44,011 nucleotides of DNA from Bacteroidia bacterium (GTDB lineage: Bacteria; Bacteroidota; Bacteroidia; AKYH767-A; OLB10): the NCBI GenBank assembly GCA_035275625.1, contig DATEMK010000564.1, forward strand, positions 1 to 44,011, in the 5' to 3' direction. Position 1 is the stretch's first letter. Every line of letters begins with the position of its first letter. Both the position numbers and the translations under genes were made by a program. The notes beneath the pieces are model-generated. The model saw only the letters and a program-made list of their open reading frames with translations. It ran no database searches and was not told the origin of the DNA. Of this stretch, positions 31,007-40,015 are shown piece by piece.

Positions 31007-31591
31007 TTAAAGACTGCCCAATGCTGATTTAATTAATTCTTCCACGCTCAGGTCTGTGCCTTTAGATTTGATGGCATGGTCCAATGATTTTTCAGCAGCA
31101 TTTTTTGCAAATCCTAAAGTTAATAAAGCACTTAACGCTTCATCGCGGTTTGTATTGTGGATAATGGAAATCATCTTTGTGTTTGCATCGGTTTTTGCCA
31201 GCTTGTCTTTGAGATCAATGATGATGCGCTGCGCAGATTTTGAACCGATGCCTTTTATATTTTGCAATACGGGCGCATTACCGGTTACGATTGCCTGCGC
31301 AATTTCAACGGGCGTTAAGGAAGAGAGCATCATGCGTGCAGTGGCAGCGCCCACGCCTGAAACGCTGATGAGGTTGCGGAACATCCTGCGCTCGTCTTCA
31401 TCGGCAAAGCCATACAGGGTATGCGCATCTTCTTTAATTGCAAGATGCGTAAATATTTTGCAGTGGCTTCCTTCCTGTACTTTACTGTAGGTATTTAACG
31501 AAATATTTACCTGGTACCCGATGCCTGCACATTCGAGCACAATGTGCGTGGCGGTTTTTGAAATTATTTTTCCTGAGATGTAATCGTACAT
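31007..31591 (-). CDS. ruvA: Holliday junction branch migration complex subunit RuvA
   Basis: MYDYISGKI... OB-fold N-terminus and two HhH motifs (ISVSGVGAATA, IKGIGSKSAQRI). Confidence 0.95.
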   Translation of the reverse strand: MYDYISGKIISKTATHIVLECAGIGYQVNISLNTYSKVQEGSHCKIFTHLAIKEDAHTLYGFADEDERRMFRNLISVSGVGAATARMMLSSLTPVEIAQAIVTGNAPVLQNIKGIGSKSAQRIIIDLKDKLAKTDANTKMISIIHNTNRDEALSALLTLGFAKNAAEKSLDHAIKSKGTDLSVEELIKSALGSL

Positions 31592-31601
31592 TTGGCAATT
31601 A

Positions 31602-31625
31602 GTAATTGGGTAATTGGGTAATTGG
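31602..31625. repeat. Octamer stutter GTAATTGG x3 in the ruvA leader
   Basis: Read directly. It is preceded by the degenerate unit GCAATTA and begins 11 nt upstream of the ruvA ATG. Confidence 0.9.
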
Positions 31626-31668
31626 TGAATCCTGTAAGCTGTATGGGTAAATAATTGGAGAATGATTG

Positions 31669-31676
31669 CAAAAGTA
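31669..31676 (-). promoter_or_regulatory. Candidate -7 box (TACTTTTG on the minus strand) for ruvA
   Basis: CAAAAGTA on the + strand, 78 nt upstream of the ruvA ATG. The stutter lies between the box and the ATG. Confidence 0.3.
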
Positions 31677-31721
31677 ATTTATTGCTGATTAACTTTTTGC
31701 TGAATGCAATAACCTTTACAT

Positions 31722-32225
31722 GATCTGTTGAGCCCGCATGGCTTGCGATGGAGGTATTTTTATAATCACCTGCGCACTTTCTTTAATCACTTGTGACATT
31801 ACTGCAATCTGTTGCGCTCCCGCTGTGATCTGTTGTGACAAATTTGTAATCTGTGGTTTCCGCGCGGGGATCAACAGCCGCCTCGACACAATCAGTTGTT
31901 TATTTATTGCAATCACAGGTTCCTTTACGAAAATCAGTGGTTTGCTTTCCGAAATCAGAGGTTATCTCTCCTGGATTGCTGGTGTGCTTTAAGGAATCGT
32001 TGGTTGTCTTTACGGGGTTGGGGGTTCTCTCTCCGGGATCGTTGGCAGGCTCTTGGTGATTTTTAGTCGCCTTTCAAAAATTCGCAGTGTGCTTACGAGG
32101 ATGATGAGTTCCCTCTCCGGGATTCGAGGTGTGCTTTTGAAAATTCGTGGTGCCCCCGCGACAATTTGCGGCCACCTCGTGGAGATTGCTGGTAATTTCC
32201 TTGTGGGTGGAGGTGAGTTCTTGGT
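31722..32225. repeat. Array of 24 tandem 21-bp units in perfect phase (diverged, no indels)
   Basis: An RATY core (GATC/AATC/GATT/AATT) sits at 31722+21n for nearly every n from 0 to 22. Consensus is about RATCnnTGGTnnnCTYTCnnn. Confidence 0.9.
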
Positions 32226-32229
32226 TTGA
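31738..32229 (+). pseudogene. Conceptual heptad-repeat ORF (I-x-G/C/S-x-L-x-x, 22 heptads) interrupted by one TAA; coding status unproven
   Basis: ATG 31738 to TGA 32227-32229 is open except for TAA at 31990-31992. Synonymous-type variation occurs at the conserved Ile, Gly and Leu codons. There is no family match and the antisense frame is also largely open. Confidence 0.3.
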
Positions 32230-32549
32230 ACATGGGATTTGTAAGGTTTCGGGAGGAATTTATTGTTTTTGGAGGAAGTGTTTCAGGAGAATTTTGGAAA
32301 GGTTCTGATGTTGAATGAGTTTGGATTTTGAGTGGTGCTGACGGTGAGGGGATTTGTGGTGTAAGGGATTTAGGGAAGGAGTTTTTGGAAAAAGGGAAGT
32401 TGAATTGATCGGTTAATTGCAAGTTTTGAGCCAGAAAAAAGTAAATTGTCTGAACCTTGATTAAATGGATTAAGAGATTAGTATGATTAAAAATGAAACA
32501 GATTTTGAAATCCTTTTCATAGTCTTATGAGAAATGAGAGGTTATGAAA

Positions 32550-33992
32550 CTACATTACGTCAATGAGAGTACCATCTCCGAACGCTCCGACAAGTTCTGA
32601 TTCAATAGGGCGGCAAATGTCTCTTTCATCCAAAATGGGTTCAAAACTTTTCCCATATTTATCAGGATTACGATAAAGATGTGACTCACCGAAATTGAGT
32701 ATGGTATACCAACTATTTGGTGAAAAGGAATTGTGATCTTCAGCAATCTGCTGAATAAAACAACCTAATGCATAACAAGACATTTTGCTTGCAGGCATTT
32801 TTAATTCCTCATAAATTATTTTTGCAAATGAGTGATATTTCTTTGAAGTAACAATTACTGATTTATCTTCTACGTGATTTATGACAGTTGCTTTTTCTTC
32901 TCTTGCGCCAATTATTTGCAATTTGCTTAATCTGGAAAGGTCAATTTTTTTTGATTTGCAGGCTTCAGGATTTCGCTTTAATTCATTACGCTTCCTGGTA
33001 AGGCTTTTTAACATGTCTCCAGAAGTGCAAAAAGGAATATATAAAAAATCGGCATAGCTGTTGAACAACTCCTCGTAAAGGGCGTTTTTATTTGTCAATT
33101 TATTTTCCGCAAAATATTCCTGATCCTTAATGTAGTATCCATTTCTGTTAAAAGTTAAATCCAAAACCTCAGTGGTTGTCAATTTATTAAAATTAACATC
33201 AGAATAATCATATTGTACAACACAACCAATTTTTTCTAATTTTCCACCATCTGCTCTCTCAGATTCTTTACATAATACCCGTAATGGCGCCATTCCAAAA
33301 CTGGATAAAAAATATTGGAGACTGAAAGCAAGTTTGCATTTGAAGACTGTGCTTAAAACAGGCAACGCAGTTTTTTGCAGTAAATTTTTTTCTATCAACG
33401 ACCTGTAGATATTAAATATATCAATTGCTTCGCGATCATTGAAATGTCCCGTTGGAAGGGTGGATTCATCTTTTATATAAACATTTTTAAATGGTATTAA
33501 TTTACTTATAATTGGCATTAGTTCATTTAATATTTTTTTGATAATTTTTATATCATCTTTAACCTCCTGTATACTATTTAAATTTTCTAACTTTTTTTCG
33601 AATTTGCTGAGTATATCCACAAAATTTATGCGGAAGTTATTTGTAGCTGGGTTTGGAAATTCATAGAGAAAATTTTCATATTCAGGCATAGGAAAGTTTT
33701 CTATGGCTTGCGAAAAAGGTTTGCCTGTACTGTAAGTATTTAAGGCTGTCAGAATATTATAACTACATCCATGTTTTTTAAAACTACTTTCTAATGATTT
33801 ATAATAATAGGTCTGAAAAACCGTGGAGTAAGACAGTTTATAATCCAAGTCGGAATTTGAATTAATGTGGTTTACGAGCGCTTTAAAACTTTCCTCATCA
33901 TTTTTCCACTTATAACCAGGATTTTCAAACAGGAATCGTTTAATGGCTTGTTTTAATAAATCGCTAATTGTCTGGGATGTAACTTGAGGCAT
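32550..33992 (-). CDS. Fold-type-II PLP-enzyme-like protein (Trp-synthase-beta/threonine-synthase superfamily) lacking the Schiff-base lysine, with an unknown N-terminal domain of about 160 aa
   Basis: Residues 171-188 VYIKDESTLPTGHFNDRE align with the family motif K-x-E-x-x-N-P-T-G-S-F-K-D-R, but with N184 where the PLP lysine belongs. About 300 aa follow, which is the expected domain length. IPFCTSGDM sits where the phosphate-binding Gly loop is expected. AT-rich gene. Confidence 0.55.
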   Translation of the reverse strand: MPQVTSQTISDLLKQAIKRFLFENPGYKWKNDEESFKALVNHINSNSDLDYKLSYSTVFQTYYYKSLESSFKKHGCSYNILTALNTYSTGKPFSQAIENFPMPEYENFLYEFPNPATNNFRINFVDILSKFEKKLENLNSIQEVKDDIKIIKKILNELMPIISKLIPFKNVYIKDESTLPTGHFNDREAIDIFNIYRSLIEKNLLQKTALPVLSTVFKCKLAFSLQYFLSSFGMAPLRVLCKESERADGGKLEKIGCVVQYDYSDVNFNKLTTTEVLDLTFNRNGYYIKDQEYFAENKLTNKNALYEELFNSYADFLYIPFCTSGDMLKSLTRKRNELKRNPEACKSKKIDLSRLSKLQIIGAREEKATVINHVEDKSVIVTSKKYHSFAKIIYEELKMPASKMSCYALGCFIQQIAEDHNSFSPNSWYTILNFGESHLYRNPDKYGKSFEPILDERDICRPIESELVGAFGDGTLIDVM

Positions 33993-34322
33993 TTCTTTAA
34001 AATTTAGGAGTTAAAATTATTTTTCACGATTTTCATTCTCATAATATAAAGGTAGTAAAAGTTTGCAAAGGAAACAAATTTTTTTTATCAAATTAAAGTT
34101 GTCTGAGCATTAAATTTTTATTTTTTTTTATTTTTTATCAACAATTTTTGTTTAATAAGTATTAATAATGCGGTAAATTAAATAAATATGCCATCCCTTG
34201 TCCAGATATTTCTTTTTGCTTCTCTTCAAAAGATTTGCAATAATATGTCAAATATAACTTTCATGCAAATATAAAAAAGTAAATATGTGATAAACGTGAA
34301 AAAACGTTGGACGTAATGAAAT

Positions 34323-34340
34323 ATCATACTTTAGTATGAT
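34323..34340. promoter_or_regulatory. Perfect 8-2-8 palindrome ATCATACT-TT-AGTATGAT (operator-like)
   Basis: Read directly. It is centred about 45 bp upstream of the candidate -7 box of the 374-aa/CHASE2 operon, inside the 432-bp divergent intergenic region. Confidence 0.4.
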
Positions 34341-34376
34341 TTTACGAAATTACTTTTTTTTCATGTTTCTCTTTCA

Positions 34377-34384
34377 TAGATTTG
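34377..34384 (+). promoter_or_regulatory. Candidate -7 box (TAGATTTG) for the 374-aa/CHASE2 operon
   Basis: Exact TAnnTTTG match 40 nt upstream of ATG 34425. Confidence 0.35.
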
Positions 34385-34424
34385 GTGGTGTTAAAATACT
34401 GAAACCATTAAAAACATTAAAAAA

Positions 34425-35549
34425 ATGAAAAACGTTTACTCTAACCCCGTGAAGATTTTCTTCGTCCGGGCGGCCAGTGGCAAATTGTTATTATTTGTTG
34501 TCTTGTTTATTTTCTCCGGCTTTTCCTTGCATCCTCAATGCATTTTACCGGATTCTATCTTGCAACAGGTCAAAATTATTGAATTTCCACCAGAATGGTG
34601 TGATCAACTTTTGCCTGTCGTATATGACATGCGAAAGAATAATATGGCTTCGTGCAGAGATATTAAAGACTACCTTGATTCAAATATCCGTGGTGGGGCA
34701 AAATTCGAAATTGAAGTTTTGTTTGGAACAAAATGGGTTACAATAAAATCGTGTACTTCCTATCAAGAGGAAAAAAACCAAGTCCCAGGACGAATTGATT
34801 TGGCTACTGAAGAAATAACTTTTAATTCTGATGCGCGCTATTCCAAAGCAAAATCTTTGCTGGAAAATGAAATCAGCCGATTTTGTTTTAAATTGGATTC
34901 GATAACCGTGGAGGACTCATCCGTAATGCCTTTGCTTAATATGTTTTCACAATTTTTAGCAACAAGGTTTACAGAAAAAGGGGACATCATTCAAATAGAT
35001 TCAACAGTTTCCAGCCAGGTTCTACTTAAGGATAGTTCATATGAACAATTCACCGGACTTAATGACTTGTCAATAGCACCGGTTGTTACAGTATTGCTTT
35101 CCGACAATGATTTGTCGGACAAAAAACGCCTGCAAGATTACAACGATTGGCTGAATACAAAATATGTTGCAGAAATGTCTTCATTAACAGGTTTAATATT
35201 TGAAGATATGAAAAAAGCAAAATCAGAAATTCTACATTCCGAACAACCGTTTGAAAGCGGACAAAATGTTAATGTTAAAAAAAATAAAGTGAATAAAACA
35301 GATACGGTTTCTGTTAGGACATGCCCTTTTTTAAACAGTCTGCCAAAAGAAAATAAAGCCTCTTTAAAATTTGAACTAAGATTTTTATCGTATAAAGAAA
35401 AAACGGAAGTTATTCAATTAATCAGTGTTTTAAAATCAATTTGTCCAGATATTACTCCAGAAGAATTACTCATAGAGGTAAAAAATCATTTGCGGAAGAA
35501 GTATGATTTTGTTAATGATGCTATGGTTGATTCATTGGTAATAAAATAA
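34425..35549 (+). CDS. Hypothetical exported or membrane-anchored protein
   Basis: N-terminal hydrophobic segment KLLLFVVLFIFSGFSL, no recognised domain. Its stop lies 33 nt before the next ORF on the same strand. Confidence 0.65.
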   Translation: MKNVYSNPVKIFFVRAASGKLLLFVVLFIFSGFSLHPQCILPDSILQQVKIIEFPPEWCDQLLPVVYDMRKNNMASCRDIKDYLDSNIRGGAKFEIEVLFGTKWVTIKSCTSYQEEKNQVPGRIDLATEEITFNSDARYSKAKSLLENEISRFCFKLDSITVEDSSVMPLLNMFSQFLATRFTEKGDIIQIDSTVSSQVLLKDSSYEQFTGLNDLSIAPVVTVLLSDNDLSDKKRLQDYNDWLNTKYVAEMSSLTGLIFEDMKKAKSEILHSEQPFESGQNVNVKKNKVNKTDTVSVRTCPFLNSLPKENKASLKFELRFLSYKEKTEVIQLISVLKSICPDITPEELLIEVKNHLRKKYDFVNDAMVDSLVIK

Positions 35550-35582
35550 ATTTTCAAAAAATCTAAAAAACTCAAAATCGAA

Positions 35583-37034
35583 ATGCATACTCTTTCCATA
35601 ATAATATTAAAAACTGAAGAGAAGTATAATGCCTGGCGCGAAAAAACGAAAAAAAATTTCGGTGTAATTTTTTTGGGATCATTGTTTTTTACTGCAGCAA
35701 CTTTATTAGTTACCGTTTATTTAAGCTATTGGTTTAGCGTTGAATCTTTATATGGTGAGTTTACAGGAATAAAGCGTTGGGGGATTTTTGGCAATCATTT
35801 TAAACAACGTGATTTTATTGAAAGCAATTTTCTTTTATTGGATGTGAATCATGATATTTCAGCGGCATATTCCGATTTTGACATTTCTGATAAAGACATT
35901 GATAAAATTCCTTTGGTGGGCGTACCAAACAGGAAAAAATTGGCTACTGTATTAAAATGGCTTTATGCTAATCAAAATTTATACGAAGTGATAATCAGCG
36001 ATGTCCTATTCACCAAAAAATCATTGGCTTATCCTGAAAAATTACCGAAGCATTATTATGATTCATTATCAAAATCATATCGAGATACAGTACTCTTGAC
36101 TTATATAAATTATGATGACAGTATTATACGATATTTTGATTTGCTTGATTCAAAACGCAAAATTATTGCAGCCGGAGAGTATAATGGAAATGCATTCGAA
36201 AAGGATATTTTATCCGGATCCCACTTTAATCCTGATAGCAGAGGATACGTAAATTGCAGTGATGATGAACAAACCCGGTTCCTGAATTATAAATTAGCAC
36301 GTTGCAATTCGAAAAATAAAACATTTTTGAGCTTACCACTTAAAATGTATGAAAGGATAAATCATAAAACAATTTCAGCTAATGGCAGGGAATTGACACT
36401 TAATATTGCTGACTCAGATAACCGGAAAAAAAAATTTAAATTTTGGGGCTTTTATTTGAATCAATTTGTTCCTGAATTTTATTATAATCAAAAGGATATT
36501 GATAATTTGTTAACTTATGCAAAGTCTGAATTCCCAGATTCAGAAAGAGTATCCTTAATTACCTTAAATGAATCTTATGTTTATCCAGAGCGTATTAAAA
36601 AAATCCTTTTAAGTGATCAAGGGAATAGAAAAAGCATATTTATCGGCTCGTTTGACCGCAATCAATCCGATAAGCATGATGTTTTACAGGCGGGAATGAT
36701 GAATGGATCATCTATCATATTGAATGTATATTACAATTTGCGGAAACAGCAGAACAAATTAAGTATCGTTTTGATTATTTCGCTTATCGTCTTATATTTT
36801 ATAATTCTTTCTATTTACGTAAGCCAAACCATAAATAATATTATTCTAACCATTGTAGCACATATTGGGCATGAATTGCATTATTATGGCCTCGCTTTTT
36901 TGTTAATCATTGTATCATTTTGTTTTAATGTTACTATGAGAATTATTGTACTTGAAGTTTTGCTATTTATTGCAGGATTACTTTTAAGGGGATTTAAAAT
37001 AGTTATTAAGAAAAAGCAAAGTCATGGGGAGTAA
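35583..37034 (+). CDS. CHASE2-like extracytoplasmic sensor-domain membrane protein without any output domain
   Basis: One N-terminal TM, an ectodomain of about 330 aa, then 3 C-terminal TMs and a stop. Ectodomain blocks match CHASE2 as I recall it: FLLLDVNHD...VPNRKKLATVLKWL...VIISDVLF, then GYVNCSDDEQTRFLNYKL...FLSLPLKMY, then SIFIGSFDRNQSDKHDV...MMNGSSIILNVYYNL. Confidence 0.6.
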   Translation: MHTLSIIILKTEEKYNAWREKTKKNFGVIFLGSLFFTAATLLVTVYLSYWFSVESLYGEFTGIKRWGIFGNHFKQRDFIESNFLLLDVNHDISAAYSDFDISDKDIDKIPLVGVPNRKKLATVLKWLYANQNLYEVIISDVLFTKKSLAYPEKLPKHYYDSLSKSYRDTVLLTYINYDDSIIRYFDLLDSKRKIIAAGEYNGNAFEKDILSGSHFNPDSRGYVNCSDDEQTRFLNYKLARCNSKNKTFLSLPLKMYERINHKTISANGRELTLNIADSDNRKKKFKFWGFYLNQFVPEFYYNQKDIDNLLTYAKSEFPDSERVSLITLNESYVYPERIKKILLSDQGNRKSIFIGSFDRNQSDKHDVLQAGMMNGSSIILNVYYNLRKQQNKLSIVLIISLIVLYFIILSIYVSQTINNIILTIVAHIGHELHYYGLAFLLIIVSFCFNVTMRIIVLEVLLFIAGLLLRGFKIVIKKKQSHGE

Positions 37035-37347
37035 CCGCTGAAAAAAAATAATTTGATTTTTTAAATCCGTTTTATAGCCTTTATGAAAAATGAAGTATTT
37101 GCAACTTTATTCAGATAAACTTCAATCTTCCGGCAAAATGAATTGATCAGTGTATGATTCCTCACGAATTATTTTTGATATAAAAGAGAGATCATCAGGA
37201 TTGATTCTTTTTAAAAATAAATTTGACACCCGTTTGGGATTTTTATCCTGTATTACAATCTCTGTCGCTTTGATTAACGACTGAAATATGGATCTGTCAA
37301 TTATTCGATTGTAATATGGAAACGAATACCCGGGAGCTACCCAGTTT

Positions 37348-37674
37348 ATGGAAACAGCACCAGATTTTTACAATGAGCTGATTGCGTCATTTGAAATTAA
37401 CGATTACCCGACTCATTATACTGAGTTTGATATCCTGACAAGAGATAAAGCAACGGGAGAAGCATTGGGCGGAGTGAAAATTACTGCTACTTGTACAAAG
37501 GGCAGCATGGAGCAATTTTCGAACCCGGAAGGTGCCGCAGATTTTATCCAGTTTAAGCCGACCTGGTGGACGCTTACTTACGAATGTCCCGGTTATGAAA
37601 AACTGGTAATGCCAAACCAGAAGGCTGAAAAAGGAGTCAAGATGAGCCTTGTGGCTGAACTTGTAAAGATTTAA
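37348..37674 (+). CDS. Small protein with a carboxypeptidase-regulatory-like (prealbumin-fold) segment; possibly a gene fragment
   Basis: ILTRDKATGEALGGVKITAT...NPEGAADF resembles the CarboxypepD_reg pattern. No signal peptide. A strong terminator follows. Confidence 0.45.
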   Translation: METAPDFYNELIASFEINDYPTHYTEFDILTRDKATGEALGGVKITATCTKGSMEQFSNPEGAADFIQFKPTWWTLTYECPGYEKLVMPNQKAEKGVKMSLVAELVKI

Positions 37675-37698
37675 GTGATTTTAATTTGTTAAATTGTT

Positions 37699-37728
37699 AA
37701 TCCCGGGGTAGTGCCCGGGATTTTTTTT
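37699..37728 (+). terminator. Rho-independent terminator
   Basis: Stem TCCCGGG / CCCGGGA (7 bp), loop GTAGTG, then 8 T. Flanking A residues allow bidirectional function. Confidence 0.85.
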
Positions 37729-37781
37729 ACACCCATGACCCAAAAAGAGGACTGAACAGAAAATCCAGAAAACGGTTTCTT

Positions 37782-38072
37782 TTAATTAATAGCCGGATTG
37801 GGAAAACGTGTGTTATTTTCCCAGCAATAAACAAGATTGTTCAGCAAACTGCGCATCCAACTGGATCCGCGGTTGATTAAATCTTTGCCGGTTGCCTGGA
37901 GGCGGATGCGGAATTTAAACCTGTCGAGGTCAATTTCGGGTTGTGACAAATCGGGATCAATGAGCACTTCTCCGTCATAGTCAACAACTAAATTGTGGTT
38001 GGGTGTGGAAGCATCACACTGGCTCAGCAGCTTGTTTAGCTCCTGGATGGATGGATTGATGAACAGATTCAT
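37782..38072 (-). CDS. Hypothetical 96-aa protein
   Basis: ORF only; no motif recognised. Confidence 0.35.
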   Translation of the reverse strand: MNLFINPSIQELNKLLSQCDASTPNHNLVVDYDGEVLIDPDLSQPEIDLDRFKFRIRLQATGKDLINRGSSWMRSLLNNLVYCWENNTRFPNPAIN

Positions 38073-38243
38073 AGATGTGTTGTTTTAAAAATGTGAAATG
38101 TTAAGAACGGTTGTTAAAAACACATACGGAAAAATTATGCCAGAAGTTTTTAAGCTGGAAAAAATACAGGTTATTATTTATTGAGTGCCATATTCCACAG
38201 TTATCATCAGCAAGTGTGAACATTCATCCTCAAAATAGACGAT

Positions 38244-38285
38244 AGACCAAAGACCAAAGACCATTGACGAGTGACAAAAGTGAGT
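38244..38285. repeat. Six phase-locked heptamers (AGACCAA family)
   Basis: AGACCAA AGACCAA AGACCAT TGACGAG TGACAAA AGTGAGT, downstream of the beta-helix gene. Confidence 0.85.
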
Positions 38286-38305
38286 TTTGATCCTGAACCT
38301 TCACT

Positions 38306-40015
38306 TTAAAAATCTTTTATTTGAAATACATATCCATACTTCCATGCAGGATTATTCTGAACGCGGCAGAATTTATTTCCGTTCAAACCATTTTGCGGTG
38401 CAAATGTATTGTTGCTGTCGGATGAGTTCTCGTTCAAATCTATTTCAATAAAATAAAGCCTTTCATTTTTTCTTGAGGGAGATTTTTCATTGAACGTATT
38501 GCTGATGAAAGTACAGCCCATAAATCTTCCGAGGAAACCTCTCAGGGGAGAATCAGGGAATTGAGGAATTATTTTAACAAGGTCATTCACATAAAATTTC
38601 CAGTTGCAATGATTGAAGATTCTCTCCGAATTTCCATCTTTACTTTCAACAGTAGTTATTGCCAGTGTTTTATGAATTTCAAAATTGCAGTAATTGAATT
38701 CATAAAAATGGTCATCGGGTGGATCAATTCCGAAATCAATCAAATAACCGCCCCAAAAAGAAAGTGTGTCTTTAGCCCCTTTTCTCCAGTCAGTGATGGT
38801 ACAGTTATTAAATTTCATACGGTCAGCAGAATCAATTCCGGCCACATGTGTAAATCTTCCCCTGATAATGCAATCATTGAAAACAGTTCGAATCATTCCT
38901 TTGGGCCAGATGCTCCACGAACCGGCATGAGAAGCGGAAAACTCGCAATCATTAAAAGTGATGTCCGAAACATAGGGAAAATGATTGTCAGAAATCAGTC
39001 CGCAAAACATGTTATCCAGAAATTTACAATTGGCAAATTTGATGTTCACACAACTTCCACCGGCTTCCGGCTCAATGTCAACGCCTGCTCCCGGGTTGTT
39101 GTAAAATACGGTTCCCGTATTTGAAAAGATGCCGTTAACGACATTAATATTGGTCCCCGCAGTAATGCTCAGGCCCTGCCTTGAATTGGCGGAGCAGGTA
39201 ATATTTTCAAGATGTATGCAGTCAGGATTGCCATTTGAGTAGCAAAGCATGATACCGTCACGCCCGAAATTATTGCACGTAATATTTTTTACTGTTATAT
39301 TCTTAGAACCAAATACGTCAATGCCATCATGACCTATTTGATAACCGTTGCATTCGCCAAAAAATCCTCCAAGTTTCATTTTAGTATTGTTGCCATTCAT
39401 TTCAATCTGCTCAATCGTTATGCAGGAACTGTTCTTTATGTGAATAAAAGTTCCCAGCGTGGCATAGGCGTTGTAATCCTTAGTGGTGCTGCAGGCTTCG
39501 TTTGAGGGTATATACGAAACCGGTTGCATCTGCTTATCATATCCGCCAAAAGGCAAACCGTTTTTGTATTTGATAACGGTTCGTTTGCTCCCTGAAATAA
39601 TTATGTTTTTTGCATTCTCCAATTCCATCATGTTTACACCCTTACGGGTAATGCGGATGTCATTCACAAAACTTTGCTCATTGCGCAGAGGATTGGTTAT
39701 TTTCTGACCAGGTTCAAGCTGCAATCCTACAAGATAAGTTCCCGGTGGAATGTATAATTTAAGTATAAAAGAATCGCTGCAATTTTTATTGAGCCAGTCA
39801 GAGGCAGCGAGGAAAGAAAAGGAGTCGTCATGTTTATTATTGCCTTTCGCGCCAAAGTCTGCTTTAAGATCTTTTGTGATGATCTGTAAAGGTGTTTTGC
39901 ATTGGCAATTGTTTTCAAACGCAGCCTGCTCTCCCGATTTTGCAGAGATAAAAGCTGCGACCAGGAATGTTCCGCAAATAATAACCGTGAATACTAAGAG
40001 CAGGTTTCTTTTCAT
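38306..40015 (-). CDS. Secreted right-handed parallel beta-helix protein (pectate-lyase-superfamily / tailspike-like glycanase fold)
   Basis: Signal anchor; DFGAKGNNKHDDSFSFLAA N-terminal motif. Successive PbH1-type coils: ITVKNITCNNFGRDGI, IHLENITCSANSRQGL, INVVNGIFSN, IKFANCKFLDN, ITFNDCEFS, MKFNNCTITD. Confidence 0.78.
   Translation of the reverse strand: MKRNLLLVFTVIICGTFLVAAFISAKSGEQAAFENNCQCKTPLQIITKDLKADFGAKGNNKHDDSFSFLAASDWLNKNCSDSFILKLYIPPGTYLVGLQLEPGQKITNPLRNEQSFVNDIRITRKGVNMMELENAKNIIISGSKRTVIKYKNGLPFGGYDKQMQPVSYIPSNEACSTTKDYNAYATLGTFIHIKNSSCITIEQIEMNGNNTKMKLGGFFGECNGYQIGHDGIDVFGSKNITVKNITCNNFGRDGIMLCYSNGNPDCIHLENITCSANSRQGLSITAGTNINVVNGIFSNTGTVFYNNPGAGVDIEPEAGGSCVNIKFANCKFLDNMFCGLISDNHFPYVSDITFNDCEFSASHAGSWSIWPKGMIRTVFNDCIIRGRFTHVAGIDSADRMKFNNCTITDWRKGAKDTLSFWGGYLIDFGIDPPDDHFYEFNYCNFEIHKTLAITTVESKDGNSERIFNHCNWKFYVNDLVKIIPQFPDSPLRGFLGRFMGCTFISNTFNEKSPSRKNERLYFIEIDLNENSSDSNNTFAPQNGLNGNKFCRVQNNPAWKYGYVFQIKDF

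Follow-up and report, generated by a model that had tools for sequence, protein, structure and literature searches.

A divergent CHASE2-like membrane protein without an output domain and its likely exported partner in an AT-rich region of a Bacteroidia genome

The window analysed here is a stretch of 44,011 nucleotides (nt) from a Bacteroidia bacterium (assembly GCA_035275625.1, contig DATEMK010000564.1, forward strand), in which two adjacent genes encode an exported protein of 374 amino acids (aa), here A374, and a CHASE2-like membrane protein of 483 aa, here B483. Both open reading frames (ORFs) are intact and lie on the + strand, A374 upstream, with a gap of 33 nt between them, and the GC content is 0.30-0.31 across positions 33001-37000 against approximately 0.39 elsewhere in the window. 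The coordinates, the gap and the AT-rich composition (about 30% GC versus 39%) agree with a preliminary description of this DNA that had been made from the letters alone. The two genes are genuine and intact, a very divergent version of a CHASE2-like/partner pair that is conserved but uncharacterised, and they are notable for lacking the exported caspase that usually accompanies it. Its features, with the evidence for each, are as follows.

34425..35549, + strand: A374, putative exported partner protein, 374 aa (ORF, N-terminal hydrophobic segment, partner hidden Markov model (HMM), hhalign)
34425..34550, + strand: predicted N-terminal signal peptide or signal anchor of A374, residues about 1-42 (hydropathy; signal-like segment in all aligned partners)
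35292..35519, + strand: conserved C-terminal module of A374, residues 290-365 (hhalign over 75 columns; HMM domain 299-375 of the stop-to-stop frame)
35583..37034, + strand: B483, stand-alone CHASE2-like membrane protein without output domain, 483 aa (ORF, homologues, hhalign, AlphaFold2)
35661..35726, + strand: first predicted transmembrane (TM) helix of B483, TM1, residues about 27-48 (hydropathy, AlphaFold2 helix 26-46)
35727..36761, + strand: predicted periplasmic CHASE2-like domain of B483, residues about 49-393 (hhalign to CHASE2 over 117-415, kept motifs)
36762..37013, + strand: predicted three-helix C-terminal membrane bundle of B483, residues about 394-477, then a basic tail (hydropathy, AlphaFold2)

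The ATG at 35583 is the first start codon past an in-frame stop and appears to be a better start for B483 than the publicly annotated TTG, because the homologues align from about residue 24-34 and carry a TM1 of their own. The public gene call starts at the TTG (L34) and yields 450 aa, so that the basic tail at the N terminus and some of TM1 are lost (window 35583-35682). Direct family scans against Pfam, NCBIfam, PADLOC and PHROGs gave nothing significant for A374, B483 or the divergently transcribed neighbour C480, and in a word-indexed search of 5.8 billion clusters each of the three retrieved itself only. The public records of homologues that we looked up carry the name 'hypothetical protein', so the branch to which B483 belongs is unrecognised in annotation. 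One of these homologues is GAB2809086.1 of Ferruginibacter profundus, a cultured carrier.

Hydropathy placed the hydrophobic blocks of B483 at residues 25-48, 389-425 and 432-477. An AlphaFold2 model built on an alignment of 44 homologues (predicted local distance difference test score (pLDDT) 85.3; predicted template modelling score (pTM) 0.87) consists of a mixed alpha/beta domain and helices at residues 26-46, 395-414, 432-448 and 454-482. The architecture of one TM helix, about 345 aa and three further TM helices is that of CHASE2 proteins (one TM helix, an extracytoplasmic domain of approximately 300-350 aa, three TM helices), and both lines of evidence agree with the topology proposed beforehand, in which the periplasmic domain had been put at about 330 aa. 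The two termini are rich in Lys and Arg (REKTKKN; RGFKIVIKKKQSHGE), and by the positive-inside rule they are therefore predicted to be cytoplasmic and the domain of about 345 aa periplasmic. Under this topology the cytoplasmic part of B483 would amount to about 25 N-terminal and 6-10 C-terminal residues, the latter being the whole tail past the last hydrophobic block.

An exhaustive phmmer search of 1.84 billion representatives with B483 recovered 56 representatives at E <= 1e-3 (22 at E <= 1e-10), mostly 420-500 aa long. Individual matches to the Pfam CHASE2 model PF05226 were detected in 23 of the 44 aligned homologues at E <= 0.01, the best with an E value of 1.3e-9. For reference we aligned 19 canonical CHASE2 cyclases of 715-746 aa, all from the same phylum; hhalign of the family against this alignment gave 96.3% probability and an E value of 1.8e-9 over 239 columns, and against five stand-alone CHASE2 proteins of the class that are Pfam-positive it gave 91.3% (E 9.7e-7); reciprocally, the B483-family HMM directly matches canonical CHASE2 cyclases (E 2e-6). 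The motifs are collinear, the family blocks ITDR.KL, VVCD.F and FIG.F..D.H.T.YG..G..ILLN aligning with WPWPR, FD.F and VGAT..D..PTPF..PGVEIHA of CHASE2. B483 itself keeps R117, D140, D363, H365, G371, G375 and N381. The CHASE2 cyclases (PF05226) thus share with B483 the one-plus-three arrangement of TM helices around a domain of about 300-350 aa, but they differ from it in carrying a fused output domain (715-760 aa in those sampled in the phylum), in having WPWPR where B483 has VPNR, and in having a PTP/PGVE.HA block where the B483 family has D.H.T.YG..G..ILLN.

B483 diverges too far for direct detection, giving no match to PF05226 even at E <= 1 (gathering score 26.3 bits), and a six-frame search of the whole genome with the CHASE2 model was likewise negative. 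Foldseek found nothing in the PDB at E < 1 for the B483 model, and a PDB sequence search with the B483 family gave no relevant match. One might hold from these negatives that B483 is unrelated to CHASE2 and resembles it in topology and composition only. We regard this as highly improbable, given that half of its homologues match PF05226, that two independent profile-profile comparisons show collinear motifs and that the reverse HMM search reaches canonical CHASE2 proteins; the PDB searches returned no CHASE2 chain either and could therefore not bear on the relationship. CHASE2 is a widespread sensor domain for which no solved structure was found in these searches, and we know of no ligand for it. 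B483 thus appears to be a remote member of the CHASE2 superfamily, from a branch only partly reached by the Pfam model. Its earlier identification as a CHASE2 protein stands at the level of profiles and fails as a direct Pfam match.

The preliminary description had noted that B483 ends after its last helix, and the family shares this feature: across 44 sequences the medians are 465 aa for the length, 4 aa before TM1 and 13 aa after the last hydrophobic block. The Pfam scan of the window genes detected no output-type domain in the ORFs downstream of B483. Because the output-less form is the family norm (median 465 aa), the absence of an output domain is probably real and not an artefact of assembly. 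A stand-alone CHASE2 protein had been thought unusual; the five Pfam-positive CHASE2 proteins that we examined from the class all turned out to be output-less (380-440 aa), which argues that this form is common in the class and not an oddity. One family member, encoded on the metagenome contig Ga0307510_10000657 (L054:6989-9157), is 722 aa long and has about 250 extra residues after the CHASE2-like module. Residues 505-614 of this protein weakly match the multi-TM Ceramidase family PF05875 (E 3.7e-7, below the cut-off), and this is the sole membrane-embedded extension seen in the B483 family.

We surveyed the neighbourhoods of 22 loci encoding B483-family proteins: one from the assemblies holding homologue P0004, four from same-class representative genomes, 13 from GTDB genomes, all Bacteroidota (Chitinophagaceae, Ferruginibacter, Niastella, Cytophagales and Cyclobacteriaceae), and four from metagenome contigs. 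The query for related loci was a closer subset of 11 sequences of the family, and neighbouring ORFs were clustered with BLAST and then searched with HMMs. In 21 of 21 informative loci a gene for a partner protein of 250-390 aa with an N-terminal signal segment lies directly adjacent to the CHASE2-like gene on the same strand, and in 15 of these it overlaps or abuts it. The partners fall into BLAST cluster C3 (always upstream), cluster C2 (up- or downstream depending on the locus) and divergent singletons linked to the others by the C3 HMM. In 17 of 19 informative loci the gene for an exported clan-CD protease is no more than 8 kb away. These proteases measure 430-1540 aa and combine N-terminal WD40 or TPR repeats with a C-terminal module of about 440 aa containing Peptidase_C14 (a TPR-CHAT protein in one locus); the full-length ones have signal-like N-termini, and all 14 aligned caspase modules retain the SGHG and DAC.SG catalytic motifs, that is, an intact His-Cys dyad. 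In the closest relatives (L006, L041-44, L054 and L055) the caspase gene comes first, on the opposite strand, followed by the partner and then the CHASE2-like gene; L041-L043, which are Ferruginibacter or Niastella loci, are examples with all three components.

The Pfam-positive stand-alone CHASE2 loci are organised along similar lines, with a gene for a signal-peptide protein of about 300 aa directly downstream in 5 of 5 (four of these proteins weakly match the C2 HMM) and, within the same gene cluster, a TPR-CHAT or caspase-TPR protein close by in 3 of 5. In a maximum-likelihood tree the CHASE2-like clades track the type of partner, and B483 falls on a long branch within a clade of proteins with C3-type partners (support 86/82), a placement that fits the preference of A374 for the C3 HMM. 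The survey of output-less CHASE2 homologues that had been suggested earlier has thus yielded a conserved partner; of the candidates then put forward A374 stands, while the recurrent exported caspase or CHAT protease, and its absence from this locus, had been missed.

One of the five same-class genomes behind L063-L067 (L066) has two partner genes in tandem. In genome G104 (L015:8919-16999) three tandem TPR / Glucodextran_B-like / Peptidase_C14 paralogues of 700, 1018 and 749 aa stand directly upstream of the CHASE2-like gene, the last one overlapping its start, and the C-terminal part of a fourth gene runs off the fetched stretch. In genome G003, from the same taxonomic family as the genome studied here, the CHASE2-like gene (L018:8058-9579, - strand) is broken into two frames that match HMM positions 9-220 and 223-432, through either a frameshift that made it a pseudogene or a fault in the assembly. 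Upstream of it is a faint remnant resembling a partner gene (E 0.032), and the locus is not syntenic with the window.

A374 has one N-terminal hydrophobic segment at residues 9-42 (Kyte-Doolittle), which may be a signal peptide or a signal anchor. The C3 partner HMM matches it with an E value of 2.3e-6 in the locus database and 2.8e-4 genome-wide, where it is the sole match in the genome, and hhalign against a partner profile from which A374 had been left out (A6) gave 72.7% probability and an E value of 3.2e-5 for residues 290-365. The signal segment and a strand-plus-Cys motif near the start are common to A374 and the partners; its central part is not alignable. Its position and strand are those of the C3-type partner in the closest relatives. 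Because the HMM matches, the hhalign result, the position, the C-terminal module and the placement of B483 in the tree combine, we consider with moderate confidence that A374 is a divergent but real member of the partner family, which upholds its earlier nomination as the candidate partner of B483. A FecR-like nature of the partner family, considered from its YYVLQVKG..K.GD motif, was rejected after no Pfam FecR match was found in 17 + 6 partners, and a hidden caspase domain in A374 was rejected after a negative search. PDB profile searches with the partner family gave no relevant match.

The closest described analogue of the partner is probably MtxA of Magnetospirillum, whose gene adjoins a CHASE2 adenylate-cyclase gene (PMC4439547). 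MtxA is exported, is about 300 aa long and carries a signal peptide; its N-terminal part is beta-rich and its C-terminal domain helical. The layout is common to A374 and the partner family, as is the position of the gene beside CHASE2. A374 differs in being longer (374 aa), and only about its last 75 residues align even to its own family. The MtxA_C model (PF22121) has no match in A374 or 16 aligned relatives at E <= 1, and PDB profile searches were negative; a single weak match (E 0.0049) was found in the partner of a canonical stand-alone CHASE2 protein.

Taken together, these results lead us to propose, with a probability of about 0.6 for identity and complex formation combined, that A374 and B483 make up the core pair of an envelope cassette that recurs among Bacteroidota and forms a receptor-adaptor complex. 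Sequence features place the CHASE2-like ectodomain in the periplasm, together with the partner and, in relatives, the protease. The partner would dock on the ectodomain to give a periplasm-facing complex, which in most relatives may tether, regulate or be processed by the exported protease. If the complex is coupled to an exported protease, its output would therefore lie in the envelope and not in the cytoplasm. In the genome studied here the pair would have arrived on a strain-specific AT-rich island, and it may either work without a protease, as a minority of relatives seem to do, or be an orphaned but intact remnant. A family that has no cytoplasmic output, always occurs with a secreted partner and usually with an exported caspase-like protease offers a testable mode of action in the envelope. 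The present copy shows how far the pair can diverge with the family motifs kept.

In a further reading, what is conserved is the pair as such: a secreted adaptor would dock on a CHASE2 ectodomain that has no output module, the output would be extracytoplasmic, and what CHASE2 receives would be a protein partner or a protease, not a small molecule whose presence is relayed to the cytoplasm. The output could then be the recruitment or gating of exported caspase-type proteases at loci that have them, and an altered three-helix membrane bundle at loci that lack them, as in this window. We hold this version as tentative; if it were true, protease-less copies such as this one would isolate the minimal module.

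The closest literature to the proposed receptor-adaptor complex is that on caspase-CHASE2 fusions, namely the Trichodesmium erythraeum metacaspase-CHASE2 protein (PMC3501461, PMC2853523) and the EACC2-caspase-CHASE2 architecture (PMC8195603). These too join a clan-CD protease with a CHASE2 module whose end comes just past three C-terminal TM helices, and they make clear that CHASE2 can occur without a kinase or cyclase to feed. They differ from the B483 loci in that their caspase is N-terminal to TM1 and predicted to be cytoplasmic, whereas the protease of the B483 family is a separate signal-peptide gene product, predicted to share the compartment of the CHASE2 domain, and is absent in the window. 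Our literature search returned no paper describing a CHASE2-like/partner/protease cassette and, in the library searched, none combining CHASE2 with 'CHAT domain'; on CHASE2 with CHAT only the cyanobacterial metacaspase survey was relevant.

Several observations weigh against a protease-coupled receptor-adaptor complex at this locus. The similarity of A374 to the partners is limited to about 75 C-terminal residues and is of moderate significance (the 72.7% of hhalign), and its AlphaFold2 model, built on an alignment of 13 sequences, has a pLDDT of 45 overall and below 50 for most residues, residues 320-374 being modelled at 74-86 and mostly helical. B483, as described above, escapes PF05226 altogether. 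It has a valine at position 367 where 98% of its homologues have threonine (T367V), and this substitution could mean relaxed constraint, as could its long branch. The predicted cytoplasmic location of the caspase in the published fusions (PMC3501461) implies that a periplasmic logic is not universal. With the usual third component missing, this copy may not work through a protease-linked mechanism; at a genome completeness of 94%, a protease gene could also sit on an unassembled piece.

Searches of this genome with the caspase-module HMM, PF00656 and PF12770 gave no match, and no decayed caspase remnant was found in window 31501-38400. The pair thus persists without any clan-CD protease found in the genome, which makes this copy either a natural minimal case or an example of cassette decay. 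Under the latter, a three-gene cassette would have lost its protease and be no longer functional, its ORFs not yet disrupted. The lack of a caspase or CHAT protease in the genome and beside the pair fits such decay, as do T367V, the deviations at P115 and R453 and the long terminal branch of B483, and the apparently frameshifted CHASE2-like gene of G003, from the same taxonomic family, suggests that decay of this gene does occur. Yet both ORFs are full length with the TM helices and the signal segment intact, B483 keeps 35 of 44 well-conserved columns (P115 and R453 being among the deviations), and its AlphaFold2 model is confident. Pairs without a protease also occur at L014 and L050 and, among the canonical pairs, at L066 and L067, and the pair may therefore function alone. 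We consider a decaying remnant rather unlikely.

It could further be proposed that the cassette serves in anti-phage defence or another conflict, its effector being the caspase-like protease, and that this copy is a fragment of a defence island. The distribution of B483-family genes is patchy (4 of 400 sampled genomes of the class), the pair lies in a strain-specific AT-rich island, and the proteases have variable N-terminal repeats and occur as tandem paralogues. A precedent is DdvA of Myxococcus xanthus, a single-pass periplasmic TPR-CHAT anti-sigma factor paired with an extracytoplasmic function (ECF) sigma factor and controlling a defence island (PMC11506125). DdvA is likewise a precedent for a caspase-fold TPR-CHAT domain acting in periplasmic envelope signalling; it differs in having no CHASE2 domain, and the window genes have no accompanying sigma/anti-sigma pair. 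On the other side, the three AT-rich window proteins have no PADLOC match and no significant PHROG match (best E 0.026), no B483-family locus was found on viral contigs, and the Pfam-scanned window genes include no recognised defence gene. We consider a role in defence unlikely.

Two further features lie upstream of the pair.

32550..33992, - strand: C480, divergently transcribed orphan, 480 aa, in the caspase slot of the closest relatives (ORF, low GC)
33993..34424, no strand: divergent intergenic region between C480 and the A374-B483 operon, 432 base pairs (bp), AT-rich (sequence)

Scans of the intergenic region for a consensus sigma-70 promoter, a terminator and the Bacteroidota -33/-7 pattern were uninformative. 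C480 has the low GC content of the island, no hydrophobic segment and no signal peptide. It had been named, as a protein resembling pyridoxal phosphate (PLP) enzymes, as a second potential partner of B483, a suggestion that the results do not bear out: no homologue of C480 was found in its own genome or in the 285 neighbouring ORFs collected from the related loci, and the matches to PLP enzymes are weak. The Pfam family PALP scores 11.5 bits (E 0.19) against a cut-off of 35 bits, the threonine synthase model NF004170 scores 17.6 bits (cut-off 421; E 0.0011) over residues 128-189 only, and a PDB sequence search returned no match at E <= 10. Residues 171-188 (KDES..PTGHFNDR) resemble the PLP-lysine motif of fold-type II enzymes. 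C480 does not look like a replacement for the caspase: it has no hydrophobic segment and no recurrence at related loci. A caspase domain hidden in C480 was rejected, as it has no match to the caspase-module HMM.

B483 might still signal to the cytoplasm through C480 as a PLP-like pseudoenzyme that has replaced the protease as effector. C480 lies exactly where the closest relatives have their caspase gene, and in the same orientation, and this placement, the shared low GC, the short PLP-lysine-like stretch and the weak threonine-synthase match all speak for such a role. We nevertheless judge it improbable, since C480 does not recur at the related loci examined or elsewhere, has no signal peptide whereas all other components are predicted to face the periplasm, falls far short of the PALP cut-off and has no PDB sequence match, and since a cytoplasmic partner of B483 would have no more than about 25 residues at the N terminus and 6-10 at the C terminus to contact. 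C480 is not shown to belong to the cassette.

The three AT-rich genes appear to be a strain-specific insertion, because a genome of the same genus has no counterpart to window 31600-37330. The similarity to this genome (G001:C14, L068) stops exactly at the ruvA start codon, and its matching flanks lie on separate contigs. A 21-bp repeat array, C480, A374 and B483 have no counterpart in it (window 31592-37330); the exception is a set of short repeats, about 50-80 bp long (window 32442-32521), which are found again on several G001 contigs.

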